From Candidatus Nomurabacteria bacterium (lineage in GTDB: Bacteria; Patescibacteriota; Minisyncoccia; Phycocordibacterales; UBA9973): a stretch of 26,825 nt of DNA. The stretch covers positions 1 to 26,825 of the forward strand of contig CALRFE010000001.1 in NCBI GenBank assembly GCA_943356425.1, in the 5' to 3' direction. Positions 6,034 through 26,825 of this stretch are shown here, one piece after another; within the stretch, counting starts at the first letter, position 1, and each line of letters begins with the position of its first letter. Under the pieces are notes generated by a model that was not told where the DNA came from, did not search any database, and was given only the letters and a program-made list of their open reading frames with translations. The position numbers and the translations under genes were made by a program.

Positions 6034-8574
6034 ATGAATATCACCATCACAAAACGCGACGGCACCCGAGAGCCATTCAATGCCGACCGAATCAATCGGG
6101 CGATTGAACGCGCGTGCTACGGACTTACTGATCCGATCGGTAAGGTCACACAAATTGCGAGCGAAACGAATCTCACGCTCTATGATGGTATTACGACTGA
6201 AGAAATGGACCAAGCTGCGATCAATGCAGCACTCCAGAACGCGCAATCTGATCTTGAATTTGATAAAATTGCGACTCGGCTCTTCCTAAAAACTATTTAT
6301 AAAAAAGTAGTTGGTGATTTTGATACTAAAGAAGAATTGGCGGCGATGCATAAGGGGCATTTTCCGCACTACATCCGTCTTGGCGTCGAGCTCGGATTGC
6401 TCGACCAACGGCTTGCAAAAGTTTTTGATCTTGATGAACTCGCAAAGGCGCTCAAGATCGAACGCGACGAGCTCTACAAATATTCCGGCATCTCGACGAT
6501 GCAAAATCGTTACCTTATCAAAGATGCAGAACAAAATGTGATCGAAACCCCGCAATATTTTTGGATGCGCGTCGCGATGGGTATGTCCATTCTTGAAAAA
6601 AATCCGACCGAATGGGCAAAGAAATTCTATGACAAGATGTCTAAGCTCGAATATCTCTCTGCGGGGTCAACTAACATCGGTGCGGGGACAACACGTCCTT
6701 CGCTCTCGAACTGTTTCTTGATGCAAGTTGAAGACGATATGGCGCACATCGGAAAAACTGCTTCTGACGTCTTAATGCTCTCAAAGGCGACCGGCGGTAT
6801 TGGACTTGCAGTCACAAAACTTCGTGCGAACGGATCAGTACTCAAATCGAACAACACAGTCTCTTCCGGCCCTGTTCCATTTTTACACATCATGGACTCT
6901 GCGGTCCGCGCAGTACAGCGCGGTGGCAAGAAAAAAGGCGCACTCTGTTTCTATATGGAGAACTGGCACATCGATTTCCAAGATTTTCTCGATCTCAAAC
7001 AGAATGCCGGTGATGATTATCGCCGTACGCGTACCGCAAACACCGCTGTCTATATGTCTGACGAATTCATGCAACGTGTTCGCGACGACAAAGACTGGTA
7101 TCTCTTCGATCCGAAAGAAGTCGCTGACCTGATCGAGCTCTATGGCACTGCGTTTTCAAAACGCTACGCAGAATATGCGCTCATGGCAGAACGAGGAGAG
7201 CTTAAAATGTGGCAAAAGTTACCTGCGCGTCAGCAGTACAAGAACATTCTTGTCTCGCTCCAGACGACGTCACATCCATGGCTCACCTGGAAAGATACGA
7301 TCAACGTTCGTGCGCTCAACAATAATACGGGAACCATCCACGCGTCGAATCTCTGTACCGAAGTGACGCTTCCACAGAACAAAGATAATGTTGCTGTCTG
7401 TAACTTGGTCTCCATCAATATTGCGCGCCATATCGTCGGCAAGCAGATCGACTGGATGCGTCTCGAAGAGTCCGCACGTCTCGCAACGCGCCAGCTCGAT
7501 AATTTGATCGATGTCAATAAACTTCCAATTCCAGAAGCGATAAAAGCAGACAAAGAAAATCGTGCAGTCGGTCTCGGACTCATGGGATTTGCCGATGCGA
7601 TCGAACAGCTCGGCTATTCATATGAAGACAAAGAGGCGCATGATATCGCAGACAAGATCTTCGAATTCATCAGTTATATGTCGATCGATGAGAGCGCGAT
7701 GCTCGCGAGCGAGCGCGGTAGTTACAAAAATTTTGAAGGCTCTGGCTGGTCCAAAGGAATGGTTCCGATCGACACGATCAAATTACTCGACGAAGGACGT
7801 GGAAAGAAGCTCGATATTCCTGAAGGCAGTCTCGACATGACGCCACCGCTCGATTGGACAGGACTCCGAAAGAAAGTGCGAAAGGGAATGCGTAATGCGA
7901 CAGTGCTCGCGATCGCGCCGAACGCAAACATCGGACTTGTCGCGGGTACATCACCCGGTATTGATCCACGCTTTGCGCAAATGTTCTCTCGAAATAAAAT
8001 TTCCGGAAAATATCTTGAAGTCAATCCGAACCTCGTTGCCGATCTCAAATCAGAAAATCTCTGGGAAAAACATCGCGAAGAAATATTGTCGAGCCATGGA
8101 GATCTCGAAGGCATCGCTGGTATTCCGGATCGCATCAAGGCGATCTACAAAACTTCTTTTTCAACATCACCGCATGCATTTATCGAAGTCGCCGCTCGCG
8201 CACAAAAATGGGTTGACCAAGCGATCTCTCGAAACATGTATCTTGATGTCCGCGATGTTGATGAGATCATGAAGATCTACTCAGCTGCATGGGAAAAAGG
8301 TTTGAAGACGACCTATTATCTCCACATGAAGCCGAAGCATACCGCAGAACAATCGACCGTACGCGTCAATAAATCAGAAAGTATGGGCAAGAAGGGATTC
8401 GCGTCAGTGTTTAATAAAGTTGAGACGAAGACCGAGGAAATTGTTTCTGCTCAAACAGATGGAACGACTGCAATACCGGATGTCCGACCGAGTCCATTGA
8501 AAGAAAAACCACAGTTGGTCGTCCATGGTCCTGAAGACCCGAATGATGCATTGTTGTGCGAAGGATGCCAGTAA
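6034..8574 (+). CDS. nrdA: Class I ribonucleoside-diphosphate reductase alpha subunit with N-terminal ATP cone
   Basis: ATP cone ITKRDGTREPF; LSNCFL; SNLCTE; AVCNL; TTYYL; C-terminal CEGCQ. No intein is seen. Confidence 0.97.
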   Translation: MNITITKRDGTREPFNADRINRAIERACYGLTDPIGKVTQIASETNLTLYDGITTEEMDQAAINAALQNAQSDLEFDKIATRLFLKTIYKKVVGDFDTKEELAAMHKGHFPHYIRLGVELGLLDQRLAKVFDLDELAKALKIERDELYKYSGISTMQNRYLIKDAEQNVIETPQYFWMRVAMGMSILEKNPTEWAKKFYDKMSKLEYLSAGSTNIGAGTTRPSLSNCFLMQVEDDMAHIGKTASDVLMLSKATGGIGLAVTKLRANGSVLKSNNTVSSGPVPFLHIMDSAVRAVQRGGKKKGALCFYMENWHIDFQDFLDLKQNAGDDYRRTRTANTAVYMSDEFMQRVRDDKDWYLFDPKEVADLIELYGTAFSKRYAEYALMAERGELKMWQKLPARQQYKNILVSLQTTSHPWLTWKDTINVRALNNNTGTIHASNLCTEVTLPQNKDNVAVCNLVSINIARHIVGKQIDWMRLEESARLATRQLDNLIDVNKLPIPEAIKADKENRAVGLGLMGFADAIEQLGYSYEDKEAHDIADKIFEFISYMSIDESAMLASERGSYKNFEGSGWSKGMVPIDTIKLLDEGRGKKLDIPEGSLDMTPPLDWTGLRKKVRKGMRNATVLAIAPNANIGLVAGTSPGIDPRFAQMFSRNKISGKYLEVNPNLVADLKSENLWEKHREEILSSHGDLEGIAGIPDRIKAIYKTSFSTSPHAFIEVAARAQKWVDQAISRNMYLDVRDVDEIMKIYSAAWEKGLKTTYYLHMKPKHTAEQSTVRVNKSESMGKKGFASVFNKVETKTEEIVSAQTDGTTAIPDVRPSPLKEKPQLVVHGPEDPNDALLCEGCQ

Positions 8575-8696
8575 AATTAGCTTATAGTTGTTAGGTTTTA
8601 GTTTTTAGCTTTAGAGACAAAGAAAATAAGAATTATCATTTATTGGTTATAGAATTCCAAGCTAAAAGCTAACACCTATAACCTAACCCCTAATCA
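8574..8696. repeat. Inverted pair of 7-nt-periodic arrays (NNNNTAG x5-6 ... CTANNNN x5) between nrdA and nrdB
   Basis: aaattag cttatag ttgttag gttttag tttttag ctttag (8574-8614) and ctaaaag ctaacac ctataac ctaaccc ctaatca (8662-8696). Confidence 0.8.
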
Positions 8697-8698
8697 TC

Positions 8699-9709
8699 AT
8701 GCTTATCGGAAAAGCCTCACCTGAAGATACCAGCCTCCATCCCATGCACTATAAATGGGCGTATGAACTGTACAACCAAGCAGTGCGTAACACATGGTTT
8801 CCGCACGAGATCCCGCTCGGCGAAGACCTCAAAGACTGGAAAGATATGACTGATGACGAACGTCATGCGGTGAAATTCCTGATGTCATTCTTTAATCCCG
8901 GAGAACTTATCGTCAATCGCTCTCTTGCACTCGGTGTGTATCCATATATCAAATCTCCTGAATGTCACTTGTATCTTGCAAAACAAATGTGGGAAGAAGC
9001 GAATCACTGTGTTGCGTTTGAATATGTACTTGAAACATTTCCAATGGATCGCGATACGATCTACAAGATCCACACGGAGACCGATTCGATGGTCAAGAAA
9101 GAAGGTTTCATCACAAAATATTTGAAACGCATGACTGAAGTGACACTCGATATTGATAGTTCAGAAGGCAAAAAAGAATTCATTAGAAACCTTGTCGCGA
9201 CCAACATCGTCATGGAAGGTATTTGGTTTTATTCGGGCTTCATGGTGGTGCTCTCATTCCGCCAGCGCAACAAACTCCGCAATTTCGCTTCGATGATCAA
9301 CTGGGTCATTCGTGACGAATCATTGCACTTGAAGTTCGGAATGAACCTCATTATGAATGTTTTAGAAGAAAATCCTGAGCTCCTCACGCCTGAATTTGCA
9401 GATGAAATTCGAGGTATTATCATCGAAGGTGTTGAACTTGAAGTCGCATATAATAAAGATCTTTTCCCAACAGGAATTCTTGGATTGAACGCCGACTACG
9501 TGAATCAATATGTGAAATATGTCGCTGATCGTCGTCTTGAAGAGCTCGGTATGCCGAAACATTACAACGCGACCAATCCCGCAAAATGGATGGCCGGCGC
9601 GACCGATGTGTATGAACTCGTGAACTTCTTCGAACAGCAGAACACTGCATACGAAGTTGACGCACACGGACATGCGAAGAAGTCAGAAAATGAAGGAGCT
9701 AAAGAATAG
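8699..9709 (+). CDS. nrdB: Ribonucleotide reductase beta subunit with class Ic (R2c, Mn/Fe) signature
   Basis: Ligands E69, E100, H103, E173, E207, H210. F107 occupies the radical-Tyr position. W33 and C-terminal Y318 (NFFEQQNTAY) are retained. Confidence 0.92.
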   Translation: MLIGKASPEDTSLHPMHYKWAYELYNQAVRNTWFPHEIPLGEDLKDWKDMTDDERHAVKFLMSFFNPGELIVNRSLALGVYPYIKSPECHLYLAKQMWEEANHCVAFEYVLETFPMDRDTIYKIHTETDSMVKKEGFITKYLKRMTEVTLDIDSSEGKKEFIRNLVATNIVMEGIWFYSGFMVVLSFRQRNKLRNFASMINWVIRDESLHLKFGMNLIMNVLEENPELLTPEFADEIRGIIIEGVELEVAYNKDLFPTGILGLNADYVNQYVKYVADRRLEELGMPKHYNATNPAKWMAGATDVYELVNFFEQQNTAYEVDAHGHAKKSENEGAKE

Positions 9710-22562: not shown

Positions 22563-22892
22563 ATGGTTGACCTCAAAAAACTCCAAGAAGAAGTCATGCG
22601 CAACAAGCTCGAAAAGGGCTTTAATACGACCGATGTCGCACTCGAATTTTGTCGTGCGCACGAGGAGCTTTCAGAAGCATTTTCAAAATTCAACAAGAAT
22701 CAAGACGGCGTTGCCGAAGAGTTCGCCGATGTCGCGATCTTTCTGCTCGGCATGTGCGAGATATTGGGGTATGACCTTGAAAAAGAATTAGTTGCAAAGA
22801 TTGAAACAAATAAGAATCGAAAATACAAAAAATCAAAATCACCAGACGGAAAAGATATTTTCATTCGAGAGCGGACGGCAATCGATCCGTAA
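22563..22892 (+). CDS. MazG-like all-alpha NTP pyrophosphohydrolase
   Basis: EELSEAF...EEFADVAIFLL acidic metal motif, followed by LEKELVAKIETNKNRKY. Confidence 0.85.
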   Translation: MVDLKKLQEEVMRNKLEKGFNTTDVALEFCRAHEELSEAFSKFNKNQDGVAEEFADVAIFLLGMCEILGYDLEKELVAKIETNKNRKYKKSKSPDGKDIFIRERTAIDP

Positions 22893-22903
22893 ACGATACA
22901 CGA

Positions 22904-22944
22904 AAAACAAAGGGATGCTTTCGCAGAAAGCATCCCTTTGTTTT
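22904..22944. terminator. Intrinsic terminator overlapping the -35 of the next promoter
   Basis: AAAACAAAGGGATGCTTTC-gca-GAAAGCATCCCTTTGTTTT. Confidence 0.85.
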
Positions 22945-22971
22945 GACTTTTGTTATAAATAAAGGTATGGT
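22943..22971 (+). promoter_or_regulatory. Sigma-70 promoter of the nucleotidase gene
   Basis: TTGACT (22943-22948), 17-nt spacer, TATGGT (22966-22971). Confidence 0.6.
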
Positions 22972-22991
22972 GAGAAAAAATTCTTATCATA

Positions 22992-23684
22992 ATGAAGTAC
23001 ATATACAAGAATACGCTTGCGGGCGTCGACATGGACATGGTCCTCACTAATTGGGATGATCCAAAAGGATCATTTATCAATCATTGGAAAACGCATTTCG
23101 GAGACCTAAAATACTTGGGTGTCAAGAAAAGCGCCGTTTGGGATATCGCACAATTGTTTCCGGGGCATGAAAAGAGGCTGGATGATTTTTTCATGAATCC
23201 GCCGCGCGGTTTTTATCTGAATTTACGACCGATGCCGGGAGCGATCGCTGCTGTGAAAAAAATGATGGAAACGATGGAAGTTGTTGCCGTCACTACTCCG
23301 GTCTATGAAGCTGATGATCATACGCTCTCGCTCAATGAGCTTGAGAGTCGTGATCGGCTCTGGTGCCAGGTCGTTGAAGAAAAAAAGGAATGGTTGCGAA
23401 AATATTTCGGCAAAGATGCACCGGTCTTAAATCCGCTCTCTGACAAGACGCTCGCGCATGTTGATTTTCTTATTGACGACAAACCATCTGCCGGACAGAT
23501 CAAACGCAATCATCCCAGTTGGATACATGTGCTCTATGATGATGATTTCTTGTTCAATAAAAATGCAAAGAACCGCTTCAGATTAAATTGGAGGACATGG
23601 GAAGATGTCATGCCTGGCATCTTGAAAGAAGTTGAACGAAGAAAAAAACTTCGCGCGTTCTTTGACCCGCTCGGTCATGCATAA
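22992..23684 (+). CDS. HAD-superfamily 5'(3')-deoxyribonucleotidase (NT5C-like)
   Basis: Motif I VDMDMVL; FYLNLRPMPGA; VTTP; DKT; motif IV LIDDKP; RLNWRTW. Confidence 0.85.
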   Translation: MKYIYKNTLAGVDMDMVLTNWDDPKGSFINHWKTHFGDLKYLGVKKSAVWDIAQLFPGHEKRLDDFFMNPPRGFYLNLRPMPGAIAAVKKMMETMEVVAVTTPVYEADDHTLSLNELESRDRLWCQVVEEKKEWLRKYFGKDAPVLNPLSDKTLAHVDFLIDDKPSAGQIKRNHPSWIHVLYDDDFLFNKNAKNRFRLNWRTWEDVMPGILKEVERRKKLRAFFDPLGHA

Positions 23685-23702
23685 AATAATTTTAGATCAA
23701 AG

Positions 23703-23734
23703 AAAAAGCTCTGAGAATATTCTCAGAGCTTTTT
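23703..23734. terminator. 32-bp perfect palindrome, bidirectional terminator overlapping the DHFR stop codon
   Basis: AAAAAGCTCTGAGAAT|ATTCTCAGAGCTTTTT. Confidence 0.8.
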
Positions 23735-24250
23735 TTCATACGTGACGAATGTGTATGGGTAAGGATTTTTTTCGTCACTCGGAAATTTTTCTTCATGTGA
23801 TTTTTCCCATTTGCGCAGATCGATCTCAGGGAAAAAGGTATCTGCGGGAAGTTTTGCGTCCACATGCGTGATGTAGAGCCGGTCGGCGTAGGGAAGTGCT
23901 TCTTCATAAACATGTCCGCCGCCGATAATGAAGATTTCTGATTCTGCAGAATCATGTCGCGCAATGTCCTTTGAAGCGCGACTTTTTGTGTATCGTTCAA
24001 TCGCTTCTTCAAGAGAATGCACAATAATGACACCTTCGCGGAAATACTGCGGATCGCGTGTGATGATAATATTTTCACGATTCGGAAGCGCTCGGCCGAT
24101 GGATTCGAACGTTTTTCGTCCCATGATCACTGGATGACCGCTCGTCGTCTCGCGAAAGTGCTTCATGTCCGCAGGCATCTGCCAGAGGAGCTGGTTATCC
24201 TTGCCGAGTTCGTTATTTTGTCCGATGGCTGCAATTATTGAGAGGATCAT
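23723..24250 (-). CDS. folA: Dihydrofolate reductase
   Basis: LGKDNQLLWQMPADMKHFRETT, VIMGRKTFESIGRALPNRENI, FIIGGG and ADTFFP. The start overlaps the stop of the TS-like gene (ATGA). Confidence 0.97.
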   Translation of the reverse strand: MILSIIAAIGQNNELGKDNQLLWQMPADMKHFRETTSGHPVIMGRKTFESIGRALPNRENIIITRDPQYFREGVIIVHSLEEAIERYTKSRASKDIARHDSAESEIFIIGGGHVYEEALPYADRLYITHVDAKLPADTFFPEIDLRKWEKSHEEKFPSDEKNPYPYTFVTYEKKL

Positions 24251-25083
24251 ACGGCGATACTTAAGCCTTCTATTTGTGGTAATGGATTATACTGCGCCAT
24301 AAGCGGTTCAAGAATTTCCGGCACTAAAGCTTCGTCCATGTTGCACGCGCGATCGTAAGCATTTTCGGGGAGTTTGAGCATGATATTTGTGTGATCATTA
24401 GTTCGACTGACGAGCTCTTTCGCGCCTTCGTAATGATTGTCATAAATATGCGCATTTGAAATTGAGTGCGTGTAAATACCGGGACGGACGCCGAGTTTCT
24501 GAGCGAGAATATTTGCAAGGAGTGAGAAGCCGAGCGTATCGAATGGACAGCCGAGCATCATGTCATTCGAACGGATGATGTTGTGCAGATGTAATCGTCC
24601 GCCAATAATATTTACCGTCCAAGTATATGGGCACGGAACATTTTTTTTAGGAATGCCGCCATAACCATCTTCGCGCGGGTCCCACGTGACGACGACGCCG
24701 TGACGAGATGACGGATCTGCAGTCAAAAGTTTTACCAGTGCATCGAGCTGATCTCTGCCAAATGCATGGCGCCAACGCCAGCCGTATGCCGCTGCAAGTG
24801 TGCCATCGGATTCGAGAAACGGGTCCCACATTTTTGTAAATTTACGCAAGAATTCGTCTGGCTTTTTTGAGCCGCTGATGAACCAGAGTGTTTCGGCAAT
24901 AGGGGACTTTAACGGATTTTTACGGAGCGTGAGGATCGGCAGACCATCTTTTTCAAGATCGATCGAAAAGGTTATCCCAGGAAGTGCCTTGGTTTTTTTA
25001 CCAGTGCGGACGTTCAACTCCTCAATGCCTTCATCAAGAATTTTCCGGATCAAGTCTTTGTACACCTGGTCAAACTTTGTCAT
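24247..25083 (-). CDS. Thymidylate-synthase-family protein with Asp at the Asn177-equivalent site (candidate dCMP methylase)
   Basis: RTG, ETLWF, YGWRWR, catalytic PC151, RSNDMMLGCPFD182 and NAHIY. The thyA symbol is withheld because the specificity residue is not the dUMP-type Asn. Confidence 0.9.
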   Translation of the reverse strand: MTKFDQVYKDLIRKILDEGIEELNVRTGKKTKALPGITFSIDLEKDGLPILTLRKNPLKSPIAETLWFISGSKKPDEFLRKFTKMWDPFLESDGTLAAAYGWRWRHAFGRDQLDALVKLLTADPSSRHGVVVTWDPREDGYGGIPKKNVPCPYTWTVNIIGGRLHLHNIIRSNDMMLGCPFDTLGFSLLANILAQKLGVRPGIYTHSISNAHIYDNHYEGAKELVSRTNDHTNIMLKLPENAYDRACNMDEALVPEILEPLMAQYNPLPQIEGLSIAV

Positions 25084-25090
25084 ATCCTGT

Positions 25091-25098
25091 AGTATACT
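25091..25098. promoter_or_regulatory. Palindromic AGTATACT giving a TATACT -10 on both strands
   Basis: Lies in the 29-nt gap between divergent ATGs, 7 nt from 25083 and 14 nt from 25113. Confidence 0.6.
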
Positions 25099-25112
25099 TA
25101 AAAAACGCCATT

Positions 25113-25643
25113 ATGGAAAACAACACAAAAAACACGATTTCATACCCGTTCTTGCCTCCTGGTAAGAAGATCGAGTATGTCGGGATCGATGATCCATACA
25201 TGCTTCACGCAAAAGAAGTTGCAAGAAAATCAACTGATCACGCTATGCCGACTGGAGCAGTCATTACTTGTGACGGGATCATCATTGCTGAGGCTTCAAA
25301 TAAAGCAGCATTGACCAATCCGACGCTCATTAAATTGCACAAGAAATATTGTATTCGCCGAATGTGTAATATCCCGACGGGTAAAAAATATTGGGCTTGT
25401 CCTGGCTGTGCGTCGCACGAAAATCATGGCGAGTACCGCGCCGTTCTTATGGCGCTCAAAAAATTACCGAAGGAATATGATGAACTCGATCTCTATTTAT
25501 GGGGGCACTGGTGGTGTTGCGAACCGTGCTGGAACAAGATGTTCTCGATCGGTATCAAACGCGTCTTTCTTTTAGAAAAGAGCGAAATATTGTTCAATAA
25601 TAAAGAACCAGGCAATATTATTGGCAAGCAATTGACGCAATAA
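25113..25643 (+). CDS. Zn-dependent cytidine/deoxycytidylate deaminase family protein
   Basis: PTGAVI...ASN, H105-G-E107, C136-E-P-C139, GIKRV, plus a Cys-rich insert. ATG 25113 is preferred because the longer ORF overlaps the TS-like gene. Confidence 0.88.
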   Translation: MENNTKNTISYPFLPPGKKIEYVGIDDPYMLHAKEVARKSTDHAMPTGAVITCDGIIIAEASNKAALTNPTLIKLHKKYCIRRMCNIPTGKKYWACPGCASHENHGEYRAVLMALKKLPKEYDELDLYLWGHWWCCEPCWNKMFSIGIKRVFLLEKSEILFNNKEPGNIIGKQLTQ

Positions 25644-25655
25644 AAACTGTTCTAC

Positions 25656-25695
25656 AAAGCCGATTTTGGTCTCTATAACCAAAATCGGCTTTTTT
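25656..25695 (+). terminator. Intrinsic terminator
   Basis: AAAGCCGATTTTGGT-ctctata-ACCAAAATCGGCTTT followed by further T. Confidence 0.85.
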
Positions 25696-25781
25696 ATTTC
25701 TCTATGGTAGGATATGGATATGATATAGCGAAGAACACCCCTATAATTACTCACTAATCCGGGATCTCCCGACTAAATCAA

Positions 25782-26825
25782 ATGAAAGACAAACAAGTAG
25801 AAAAACTCATCAAAGCAGAAATAAAACGTCAAAAGAGCGTTATCAACCTCATCGCTTCTGAAAATTATGTTTCAAAAGATGTTTTAACTGCGCTCGGTTC
25901 TGAGCTTACCAACAAATACGCTGAAGGATATCCAAACCGACGGTATTACGGCGGCAATCAAATTATCGACAAAGTAGAACAGCTCGCTATCGACCGTGCA
26001 CTCAAACTTTTTAAATTAAAACCGCTTGAATGGCATTGCAATGTCCAGCCGCTTTCAGGCTCGCCTGCAAACTTGGCGGTGTATTCTGCGCTTGTTCCGC
26101 TTGGTGGAAAAATTATGGGGATGAAGCTCTCGTCCGGAGGACATCTCACCCACGGACAATCTGTTTCGATGACGGGAAAAATTTGGAAACAAGTGCCGTA
26201 TGAAGTTGACCCACTTACTGAAATTTTAAATTACGATAAACTAATGGCGATCGCACTTGCCGAAAAACCAGACATTATTGTTTGTGGTTTTACTGCGTAT
26301 CCACGTTTTGTTGATTTCAAAAAATTCCGCGAAATCGCAGATGCATCAGGCGCAATTCTCATGGTGGATATGTCACACTTTGCCGGACTCGTTGCAGGTG
26401 GTGTGTATCCATCACCATTTGAATATGCAGATGTTGTAACGACAACCACACACAAGACGTTGCGCGCTGCGCGTTCAGCAATGATCTTCGTGCGCAAAGA
26501 CAAGCGCGAATTTGAAAAAAAGATCGACAAGACGATCATTCCAGGACTCCAAGGCGGTCCACATGAAAACCAGATCGCTGCAGTTGCGGTCGCACTCGGC
26601 GAAGCAATGACTCCGGTGTACAAAAAATATGCTGTACAAATTGTCAAAAATGCAAAAGCGCTCGCCGCCGAACTTCAAAAACTTGGCTGGCGCATTATTT
26701 CCGGCGGGACCGACTCGCATCTTTTACTCGTCGATACTTGGATGAGTGGAAAGTGTGTTGCTGGTAAAGAGGCAAGTGCTCGCCTTGAAAAAGCAGGCAT
26801 CATCGTCAATATGAACACGATCCCG
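25782..26825 (+). CDS. glyA: Serine hydroxymethyltransferase (3'-truncated by the window; not in ORF track)
   Basis: LIASENY, TNKYAEGYPNRRYYGG, QPLSGSPAN, GGHLTHG, DMSHFAGLVAG, TTTHKTLR (PLP Lys), GGTDSH. TATAAT at 25742-25747. Confidence 0.97.
   Translation, partial: MKDKQVEKLIKAEIKRQKSVINLIASENYVSKDVLTALGSELTNKYAEGYPNRRYYGGNQIIDKVEQLAIDRALKLFKLKPLEWHCNVQPLSGSPANLAVYSALVPLGGKIMGMKLSSGGHLTHGQSVSMTGKIWKQVPYEVDPLTEILNYDKLMAIALAEKPDIIVCGFTAYPRFVDFKKFREIADASGAILMVDMSHFAGLVAGGVYPSPFEYADVVTTTTHKTLRAARSAMIFVRKDKREFEKKIDKTIIPGLQGGPHENQIAAVAVALGEAMTPVYKKYAVQIVKNAKALAAELQKLGWRIISGGTDSHLLLVDTWMSGKCVAGKEASARLEKAGIIVNMNTIP

Follow-up and report, generated by a model that had tools for sequence, protein, structure and literature searches.

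To our knowledge, the formation of thymidylate (dTMP) from dUMP by ThyA or ThyX is regarded as universal in cells. A different order of steps has been published for phages with 5-methylcytosine (5mC) in their DNA, which bypass dUMP and obtain thymine through a deaminated 5-methylcytosine nucleotide; the authors propose that these phages make dTTP by deaminating 5-methyl-dCTP (bioRxiv 10.1101/2024.12.05.627091). So far this route has been shown only in viruses, and we found no description of it for cells. Here we analysed a stretch of 26,825 nucleotides from Candidatus Nomurabacteria bacterium (contig CALRFE010000001.1 of assembly GCA_943356425.1, called the window in the following). At positions 22563-26825 it carries a cluster of nucleotide and folate genes that includes a thymidylate synthase (TS) homolog with an aspartate in place of an active-site asparagine (Asp-type TS). 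Judged from the sequence, this cluster rather probably constitutes the housekeeping thymidylate route of the cell, which would lead from dCTP via dCMP and 5-methyl-dCMP (5mdCMP) to dTMP, in reverse of the textbook order.

In phage T4, the dCTPase gp56 is a dCTP pyrophosphatase that feeds dCMP to the dCMP hydroxymethylase gp42, and cd is a dCMP deaminase. The TS homolog of the window shares with gp42 an Asp-type TS fold, which is predicted here to act on dCMP. In contrast to it, gp42 hydroxymethylates, needs no dihydrofolate reductase (DHFR) and lacks the C-terminal tail, and T4 keeps a separate canonical TS for dTMP. The Xp12-type 5mC module and the metagenomic mSCD phage modules have more in common with the cluster: a TS with Asp177 and Pro147, shared indels, an adjacent deaminase, DHFR and an all-alpha pyrophosphatase nearby. 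Unlike the Xp12 module, the cluster found here in the candidate phyla radiation (CPR) is located on a cellular core chromosome beside rplK and nusG, its TS is the sole one and belongs to a separate clade, and its deaminase is of a different, CPR-specific family. The 5mC phages have fully 5mC-containing DNA and the phage deaminase mSCD-B5 acts on the triphosphate, whereas CPR operons include thymidylate kinase (Tmk), which suggests that deamination takes place on the monophosphate and that the DNA probably retains ordinary C.

With the canonical ThyA-FolA-GlyA cycle and its Dcd/Dut or ComEB-type dCMP deaminase, the cluster has the folds, the folate cycle and the end product dTMP in common, and comparable operons occur in Asn-type CPR genomes, for instance one with dCTP deaminase (DCD), Dut, Tmk and ThyA within approximately 2.3 kb in genome G279. 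In contrast to this cycle, the uracil-reading Asn and His147 are replaced in the CPR cluster, DCD has lost its catalytic Glu or given way to a MazG-like protein, and the deaminase is divergent and confined to such genomes.

The exchange of Asn for Asp switches TS to dCMP, as engineered in the Asn229Asp and Asn177Asp enzymes (Liu and Santi, 1992; Hardy and Nalivaika, 1992; both as summarized in PMC8670742). As far as that summary describes them, these mutants carry the same single-residue switch on an otherwise complete TS catalytic apparatus; they are laboratory enzymes, whereas in the CPR the Asp is fixed in a natural cellular clade and His147 is lost as well. In metaviromes, positions 177 and 147 are the best discriminators between cytosine-modifying TS homologs and canonical enzymes (PMC8670742). 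The natural Asp-type enzymes tested so far make 5mdCMP (bioRxiv 10.1101/2024.12.05.627091; PMC8670742), and the Xp12 TS has been shown to do so and is the positive control for 5mdCMP production (bioRxiv 10.1101/2024.12.05.627091). For the second step, dCMP deaminases are known to accept 5mdCMP, and animal DCTD is a precedent for the conversion of 5mdCMP to dTMP by an enzyme with the cytidine deaminase (CDA) fold in cells (PMC12088426; PMC9594043). There it is a clean-up side activity that stops the salvage of 5mC, whereas the CPR deaminase, which is without the DCTD allosteric motif, is proposed as the main source of dTMP. A literature search, with most subscription journals outside its coverage, returned neither a cellular 5mdCMP route nor a thymidylate bypass in CPR, only the phage work and the side activity of animal DCTD. 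In the one Patescibacteria paper with a mention of thyA, the gene is taken to be an ordinary thyA.

Active site and relatives of the TS homolog

In a four-way alignment with E. coli ThyA, T4 gp42 and the Xp12 enzyme, the TS homolog reads RSNDMMLGCPFD where canonical enzymes read PFN, and PCP where they read PCH. D182 replaces Asn177 and P152 replaces His147, and the catalytic Cys (Cys146) is kept as C151. Residues R21, E58, W80, Y94, R126, R166, S167, D169, H207 and Y209 are conserved; the lone exception among the aligned catalytic and binding residues is E. coli R127, which is a His in the homolog. The phosphate- and folate-binding residues are retained, as is the C-terminal tail, which is missing in T4 gp42. 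D182 is invariant in 20 relatives and in all 19 members of the clade in the phylum sample described below, and the Asp is kept across a clade that has diverged down to 47% identity.

The Xp12 TS is 34% identical to the homolog (E 2e-54) and has the PCP and P-Y-D signature in common with it. Both also share indels, a shortened 96-107 loop and an EDG..KKNVPCP insert. The best phage matches of the homolog all come from Xp12-like phages, and outside the CPR its nearest named relatives are phage enzymes. Approximately 123 of the 150 nearest 50%-identity clusters in a library of 1.84 billion proteins are Asp-type. In NCBIfam searches the homolog stays far below all PRK01827 equivalogs (e.g., 141 vs 327 bits). 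In a tree with an unresolved backbone, the canonical Asn-type enzymes group together with strong support, those of the Xp12 type make up a second clade (96) and the CPR Asp-type enzymes form groups of their own (support 91); T4 gp42 is by far the most distant sequence (branch length 4.5). Because of these separate groups, we regard the CPR enzymes as relatives of the tested phage enzymes and not as members of their clade.

Three features together suggest that the TS homolog is a dCMP 5-methyltransferase: the active-site signature, its homology with the TS of Xp12 and its coupling to DHFR. Reductive methylation is favoured over hydroxymethylation because of the DHFR coupling and the retained C-terminal tail, as would be expected from the established TS mechanism.

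Distribution and partner genes in Patescibacteria

The window is contig C1 of a Patescibacteria assembly of 647 kb in 71 contigs that is 89% complete, and its closest relatives carry the names Nomurabacteria or Paceibacterota. Since rplK, nusG and a class I ribonucleotide reductase are encoded on the same contig, we take the window to be cellular core DNA. The genome has one PF00303 match, the TS homolog, a single PF00383 match, the cluster deaminase, and one uracil-DNA glycosylase (UDG). ThyX, thymidine kinase, trimeric dUTPase, Tmk and a C5 DNA methyltransferase were not found in the 89%-complete assembly, which means that these absences are possibly due to incompleteness.

To place this gene content in the phylum, an even sample of 401 genomes was surveyed (the tallies include genome G154 as one ordinary Asn-type row). 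The Asp-type clade is present in 19 of them, spread over 12 families, and all 19 have Asp at position 177 and Pro, Val or Ile at position 147. Each of the 19 genomes has a single TS match; none has an Asn-type ThyA and one has ThyX (G370). The remaining genomes of the sample typically have a canonical PCH/PFN ThyA or ThyX. Of 21 Asp-type genomes, three were found to have thymidine kinase. The distribution is patchy: in the family to which the window belongs, the Asp type occurs in only 2 of 24 sampled genera. A common TS of 320 amino acids in the phylum was considered as a further Asp-type enzyme and rejected, as all eight examples inspected read PCH/CH and PFN. In G370, the single Asp-type genome of the sample with an additional ThyX, an open frame of 795 amino acids approximately 100 nt downstream of the deaminase (G370:C1:201238-202716) matches Tmk and then ThyX; two ThyX matches are reported for this genome.

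Tmk is encoded in 13 of 18 Asp-type genomes, often within the operon, and has a canonical, high-scoring form in G026 and G020. The absence of Tmk from the genome of the window was considered as a sign of deamination at the triphosphate level; this was dropped in view of these 13 genomes. In several relatives with the same gene order as the window, Tmk is located just beyond the gene for serine hydroxymethyltransferase (SHMT), where the contig of the window stops. Site-specific C5 DNA methyltransferases occur at similar frequency in Asp-type genomes (6/20) and in controls (10/40). A full-length C5 DNA methyltransferase is encoded directly downstream of an Asp-type TS in G147 (G147:C14:34121-35107; L147/L154). 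The retained Tmk, the frequency of C5 methyltransferases and a deaminase family distinct from that of the phages favour dTMP as product and ordinary C in the DNA, although not decisively.

Of the 19 Asp-type genomes, 17 were found to carry the deaminase family, as opposed to 3 of the remaining 382; as the sampled genomes are related, this contrast is descriptive and carries no statistical test. The three deaminase-positive genomes of other type comprise one with a strong match (G383) and two with weak matches in long open reading frames. In a survey of 80 loci from named CPR genomes, with flanks of up to 10 kb, the deaminase is located within 10 kb of the TS in 75 loci, usually head-to-head, and three of the five loci without it are contigs that end early. 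Since it recurs in 75 of 80 related loci, this gene arrangement is far beyond chance. Genome G383 is a closed-looking single contig, 99% complete, in which a cluster-type deaminase (G383:C1:157865-158347, L152; E 1e-33) occurs without an Asp-type TS and with only a marginal ThyX match; the genes around it have no Pfam match. Conversely, the deaminase family was not found in the Asp-type genome G274, where the slot after TS, DHFR and the DCD-like gene is taken by a protein of 351 amino acids with a weak match to the TS fold (G274:C3, L151:2495-3550; PF00303 21.9 bits). Two tandem paralogues of the deaminase are found beside the Asp-type TS at G223:C5:98799-99724 and G090:C6:23798-24742.

The invariant residues of the deaminase are H105-G-E107 (H-[AG]-E) and C136-x-x-C139. 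An insert with further invariant His and Cys residues (H76, C80, C96 and C99) could form a second zinc site. The structure model (pLDDT 85) has a generic CDA fold (Z 9-11.5). No NCBIfam family is matched, and searches for a specific subfamily with PDB sequences, NCBIfam, Foldseek PDB, VIA-align and AFDB Swiss-Prot yielded only this generic fold. BLASTP comparison with the Xp12 deaminase gave no significant similarity (E 0.03 over 16 residues), and neither did comparison with the deaminase half of P0260, a natural fusion of a dCMP-deaminase domain with an Asp-type TS (L169:6001-7302) that is encoded beside a Glu-less DCD-like gene. The coupling of TS and deaminase is therefore one of context and not of shared deaminase ancestry. 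From this context, the protein is predicted to be a 5mdCMP deaminase that makes dTMP.

Among the 80 loci, DHFR is found in 61-63, adjacent to the TS, the MazG-like gene in 48 (at 62-94% identity) and SHMT in 21-24; rplK and nusG adjoin the cluster in 33-36 loci, as they do in the window. Two architectures can be distinguished. Type I, to which the window belongs, has deaminase and TS head-to-head, DHFR and a convergent MazG-like gene, adjoining rplK and nusG. In type II, found in Uhr-, Falkow-, Kuenen- and Kerfeldbacteria and others, nusG, rplK, TS, DHFR, the DCD-like gene, the deaminase and Tmk are located on one strand. In 16 type I loci, among them L106 (L106:9360-10082), rplK and the MazG-like gene are separated by a gene of the CofE / F420-0:gamma-glutamyl ligase family. 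Its product could be a FolC2-like folylpolyglutamate synthase, which would fit a folate-dependent cluster; the window lacks this gene.

MazG-like and DCD-like genes are mutually exclusive: both together occur in none of the 80 loci and one of the two in 68. The MazG-like protein has the metal motifs HEELSE and EEFADV (EExxE, EExxD), and its PDB matches are weak (pyrophosphatase 4qgp, E 1e-3; DCTPP1 and MazZ, E 0.2). A fusion of a PRA-PH pyrophosphatase with an Asp-type TS also occurs naturally (P0307). The DCD-like proteins, of approximately 215-240 amino acids, are encoded between DHFR and the deaminase (e.g., L104:5864-6511, L128:11370-12029, L113-L136 and L169:7335-7973). The catalytic Glu of dCTP deaminase (E. 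coli E138, in L-E-F-x-N) is replaced by Pro in all 20 DCD-like proteins from clusters of the related loci and in P0394, the DCD-like protein encoded beside the P0260 fusion, and six further Asp-type genomes have Pro (five) or Ser (G026) at this position, whereas eight of eight control CPR genomes with Asn-type ThyA or ThyX have the canonical Glu. A high-scoring canonical DCD was not found in the Asp-type genomes. As the catalytic residue is missing, the DCD-like proteins are not functional dCTP deaminases. They have a dUTPase-like Tyr for Phe and the motif G-x-x-D-x-x-Y-x-G. When phage relatives of the MazG-like and DCD-like proteins were sought, all matches came from haloarchaeal, Sulfolobus and other viruses, labelled partly as dUTPase and partly as dCTP deaminase. 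We infer that the slot filled by either protein holds a dNTP pyrophosphatase that would feed dCMP and might also hydrolyse 5-methyl-dCTP; the Glu-less DCD-like protein may be an uncharacterised dCTP or 5-methyl-dCTP pyrophosphatase. Altogether, three changes travel together: Asn to Asp in the TS, loss of the DCD Glu or replacement by the MazG-like protein, and the special CDA-fold deaminase.

Proposed route and rival explanations

In the route that we favour, the MazG-like protein would provide dCMP by hydrolysing dCTP and may also convert stray 5-methyl-dCTP back into 5mdCMP, a role that the DCD-fold protein without the deaminase glutamate would fill in other lineages. The Asp-type TS would then move the one-carbon unit of methylene-tetrahydrofolate to C5 of dCMP and reduce it, yielding 5mdCMP and dihydrofolate, and the divergent zinc deaminase would turn 5mdCMP into dTMP, a step assigned from gene context. 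Tmk would carry dTMP onward. DHFR would recycle dihydrofolate and SHMT would regenerate 5,10-methylene-tetrahydrofolate, closing the folate cycle; for both families these roles are established chemistry.

A dCMP-first route had been proposed in an earlier, sequence-only reading of the window. The Asp-type TS on which it was built is borne out by the alignments. Of the checks that it named, the co-occurrence and synteny of this TS with the deaminase are found across the phylum and locus surveys, as is the absence of Asn-type ThyA and, save for one genome, of ThyX. The route itself is partly supported by sequence and genome comparison, through the sole TS, its coupling to deaminase, DHFR and pyrophosphatase, the Xp12 signature and the linkage to Tmk. 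Membership of the 5'(3')-nucleotidase (NT5C) gene, discussed below, does not hold. The supposed benefit of limiting uracil misincorporation gains no support: a separate true dUTPase is retained in 7 of 20 Asp-type genomes, and UDG in the genome of the window. The same reading raised the possibility that a uracil-bypassing route had been proposed for CPR bacteria. We found no such paper in the literature covered; the published precedent is that of the 5mC phages, with deamination at the triphosphate level.

Several observations weigh against the dCMP-first route. Tmk and Dut are among the genes not found in the 89%-complete genome. The fold of the deaminase is equally near to TadA, guanine deaminase, CDA and dCMP deaminases (Z 9-11.5), a PDB sequence search gave no solved relative below E 0.1, and the DCTD allosteric motif G(Y/W)N(A/G) (as defined in PMC12088426) reads ASNK. 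Of the phage deaminases with a link to an Asp-type TS, mSCD-B5 is the only one characterised, and it uses 5mdCTP and not 5mdCMP (bioRxiv 10.1101/2024.12.05.627091); in the tree the CPR TS clade is not nested within the tested Xp12-type clade. A separate true Dut is encoded by 7 of the 20 Asp-type genomes, among them that of the nearest relative, G410, so that dUMP is still made there. In addition, the nearest phage and virus matches of the Glu-less DCD-fold proteins are annotated as trimeric dUTPase or dCTP deaminase, and these proteins could be dUTPases. An operon of TS, DHFR, a dUTPase-like gene, deaminase and Tmk would also fit a dUMP route, if the Asp enzyme accepts dUMP.

Such a canonical order, in which an ordinary dCMP deaminase and a MazG- or DCD-like dUTPase make dUMP and the Asp-type enzyme methylates it to dTMP, is in our view unlikely. 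It draws on the fact that TS, DHFR, the dUTPase-like and dCMP-deaminase-like proteins, Tmk and SHMT all are families of the textbook pathway, on the dUTPase-like motif of the DCD-like proteins and on the database name thymidylate synthase; the TS homolog also barely passes TIGR03284 (114.7 vs 108.35 bits). However, the Asp is invariant throughout its diverged clade, and both the engineered switch and the tested natural enzymes point to dCMP as substrate (bioRxiv 10.1101/2024.12.05.627091; PMC8670742). The deaminase family is essentially restricted to Asp-type genomes, though genomes with Asn-type ThyA or ThyX need dUMP too, a true Dut makes a second dUTPase redundant in seven of 20 genomes, and the replacement of the Glu-bearing DCD coincides exactly with an Asp-type TS. 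We consider quite unlikely a scheme like that of Xp12, in which 5mdCMP would be phosphorylated to 5-methyl-dCTP, dCTP removed, bulk 5mC incorporated into DNA, and dTTP made by the deaminase from part of the pool. Pyrophosphatase, Asp-type TS, an in-cis deaminase and DHFR are indeed the module of fully-5mC phages, and the Xp12 locus has the order HAD, TS, deaminase and DHFR. In such phages, PRA-PH ranks among the domains most often co-localised, and mSCD-B5 deaminates 5mdCTP but not 5mdCMP (bioRxiv 10.1101/2024.12.05.627091). The phosphorylation level used by the CPR deaminase cannot be read from its sequence, and neither a C5 DNA methyltransferase nor Tmk was found in the genome of the window, although its incompleteness may account for that. 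Against this scheme, the canonical Tmk of 13 of 18 Asp-type genomes would be dispensable were thymine made at the triphosphate level, C5 DNA methyltransferases, one of them adjoining the TS, are as frequent in Asp-type genomes as in controls, and the CPR deaminase shows no significant sequence similarity to that of Xp12. The channelling of 5mdCMP into DNA as bulk 5mC had been offered as the alternative in the sequence-only reading and is somewhat disfavoured by these data. Taken as a claim of its own, the bulk replacement of C by 5mC in chromosomal DNA, with dCTP excluded by the pyrophosphatase and thymine obtained by deamination of a 5mC nucleotide, is in our view improbable. If it were true, these would be the first cellular organisms with wholesale genomic base replacement.

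A dCMP hydroxymethylase of the T4 gp42 type, providing 5-hydroxymethyl-dCMP for modified DNA or 5-hydroxymethyl-dUMP as product, would likewise have Asp at the Asn177 position. This is very improbable for the TS homolog: such an enzyme would not need the coupled DHFR, the tail that closes the active site is kept, while gp42 lacks it and is the most distant sequence in the tree, and neither a glucosyltransferase nor any other hypermodification gene was seen in the cluster. A prophage or mobile remnant, as opposed to a pathway of the cell itself, is a hardly credible reading of the cluster. Its patchy distribution (2 of 24 sampled genera of the same family) and the phage enzymes as nearest named non-CPR relatives would be in line with such an origin; yet rplK and nusG are neighbours in the window and in 33-36 of the 80 loci, phage genes were not seen nearby, the TS is the sole one in the carrier genomes, and the window also holds core genes, among them those of the class I ribonucleotide reductase.

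If the dCMP-first route is true, approximately 5% of the sampled Patescibacteria genomes, from at least 12 families, make dTMP without dUMP as methyl acceptor, among them lineages of Nomurabacteria, Paceibacterota and Uhr-, Falkow-, Kuenen- and Kaiserbacteria. Thousands of labels reading "thymidylate synthase", "dCMP deaminase" and "dCTP deaminase" would then need revision, and metabolic models of CPR symbionts would shift, with dCMP instead of dUMP as branch point. The cluster would stand as the cellular equivalent of the 5mC module of phages, possibly its source or its sink, and its natural 5-methylcytosine-nucleotide deaminases and pyrophosphatases might serve methylation-sequencing chemistry.

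Gene arrangement in the window

Gene calls in the cluster were made with Pfam and NCBIfam profile searches and are listed in Table 1. All six nucleotide and folate genes named in the sequence-only reading are present there according to Pfam.

Table 1. Features of the cluster, with window positions, strand and the profile match or other basis of each call.
Feature	Positions	Strand	Basis
MazG-like all-alpha NTP pyrophosphatase, 109 aa	22563..22892	+	PF12643 26.9 bits, cut-off 27 (borderline)
NT5C-family 5'(3')-deoxyribonucleotidase, 230 aa	22992..23684	+	PF06941 37 bits
Dihydrofolate reductase (DHFR), 175 aa	23723..24250	-	PF00186 207 bits
Asp-type thymidylate synthase (TS) homolog, 278 aa	24247..25083	-	PF00303 182 bits
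Divergent intergenic region between TS and deaminase start codons, 29 nt	25084..25112	.	sequence reading
Divergent CDA-fold zinc deaminase, 176 aa	25113..25643	+	PF00383 35 bits, cut-off 25
Serine hydroxymethyltransferase (SHMT), cut by contig end	25782..26825	+	PF00464 482 bits; NF000586 465 bits

The DHFR start and the TS stop overlap as ATGA, and DHFR is translationally coupled to the TS homolog. The true start of the deaminase is the ATG at 25113, so that its start codon and that of the TS face each other on opposite strands, 29 nt apart; in approximately 57 of the 80 related loci the two genes are head-to-head with a spacing of 16-84 nt. This intergenic region is probably a shared promoter region, and a promoter-like site with the -10 hexamer TATACT is found there on the minus strand (25119-25091). 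The MazG-like gene has its own promoter-like site and is followed by a terminator at 22904-22944, and a further terminator is located 3' of the deaminase (25656-25692). The arrangement of these promoter- and terminator-like sites suggests separate units for MazG, NT5C, TS-DHFR, the deaminase and SHMT.

The NT5C protein has the DMDMV HAD motif, and in the PDB it is closest to the human deoxyribonucleotidases of mitochondria and cytosol (mdN/cdN; E 3e-13). The sequence-only reading had counted it among the cluster members. As only one of the 80 related loci has it, NT5C is a local insertion, an accessory gene outside the conserved module.

The class I ribonucleotide reductase is encoded at 6034-9709 of the window by nrdA, with an ATP-cone, and nrdB; with both genes on the same contig, the organism makes deoxynucleotides de novo. 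Among sequencing runs, one lake-water metagenome alone contains the stretch, stored as contigs.

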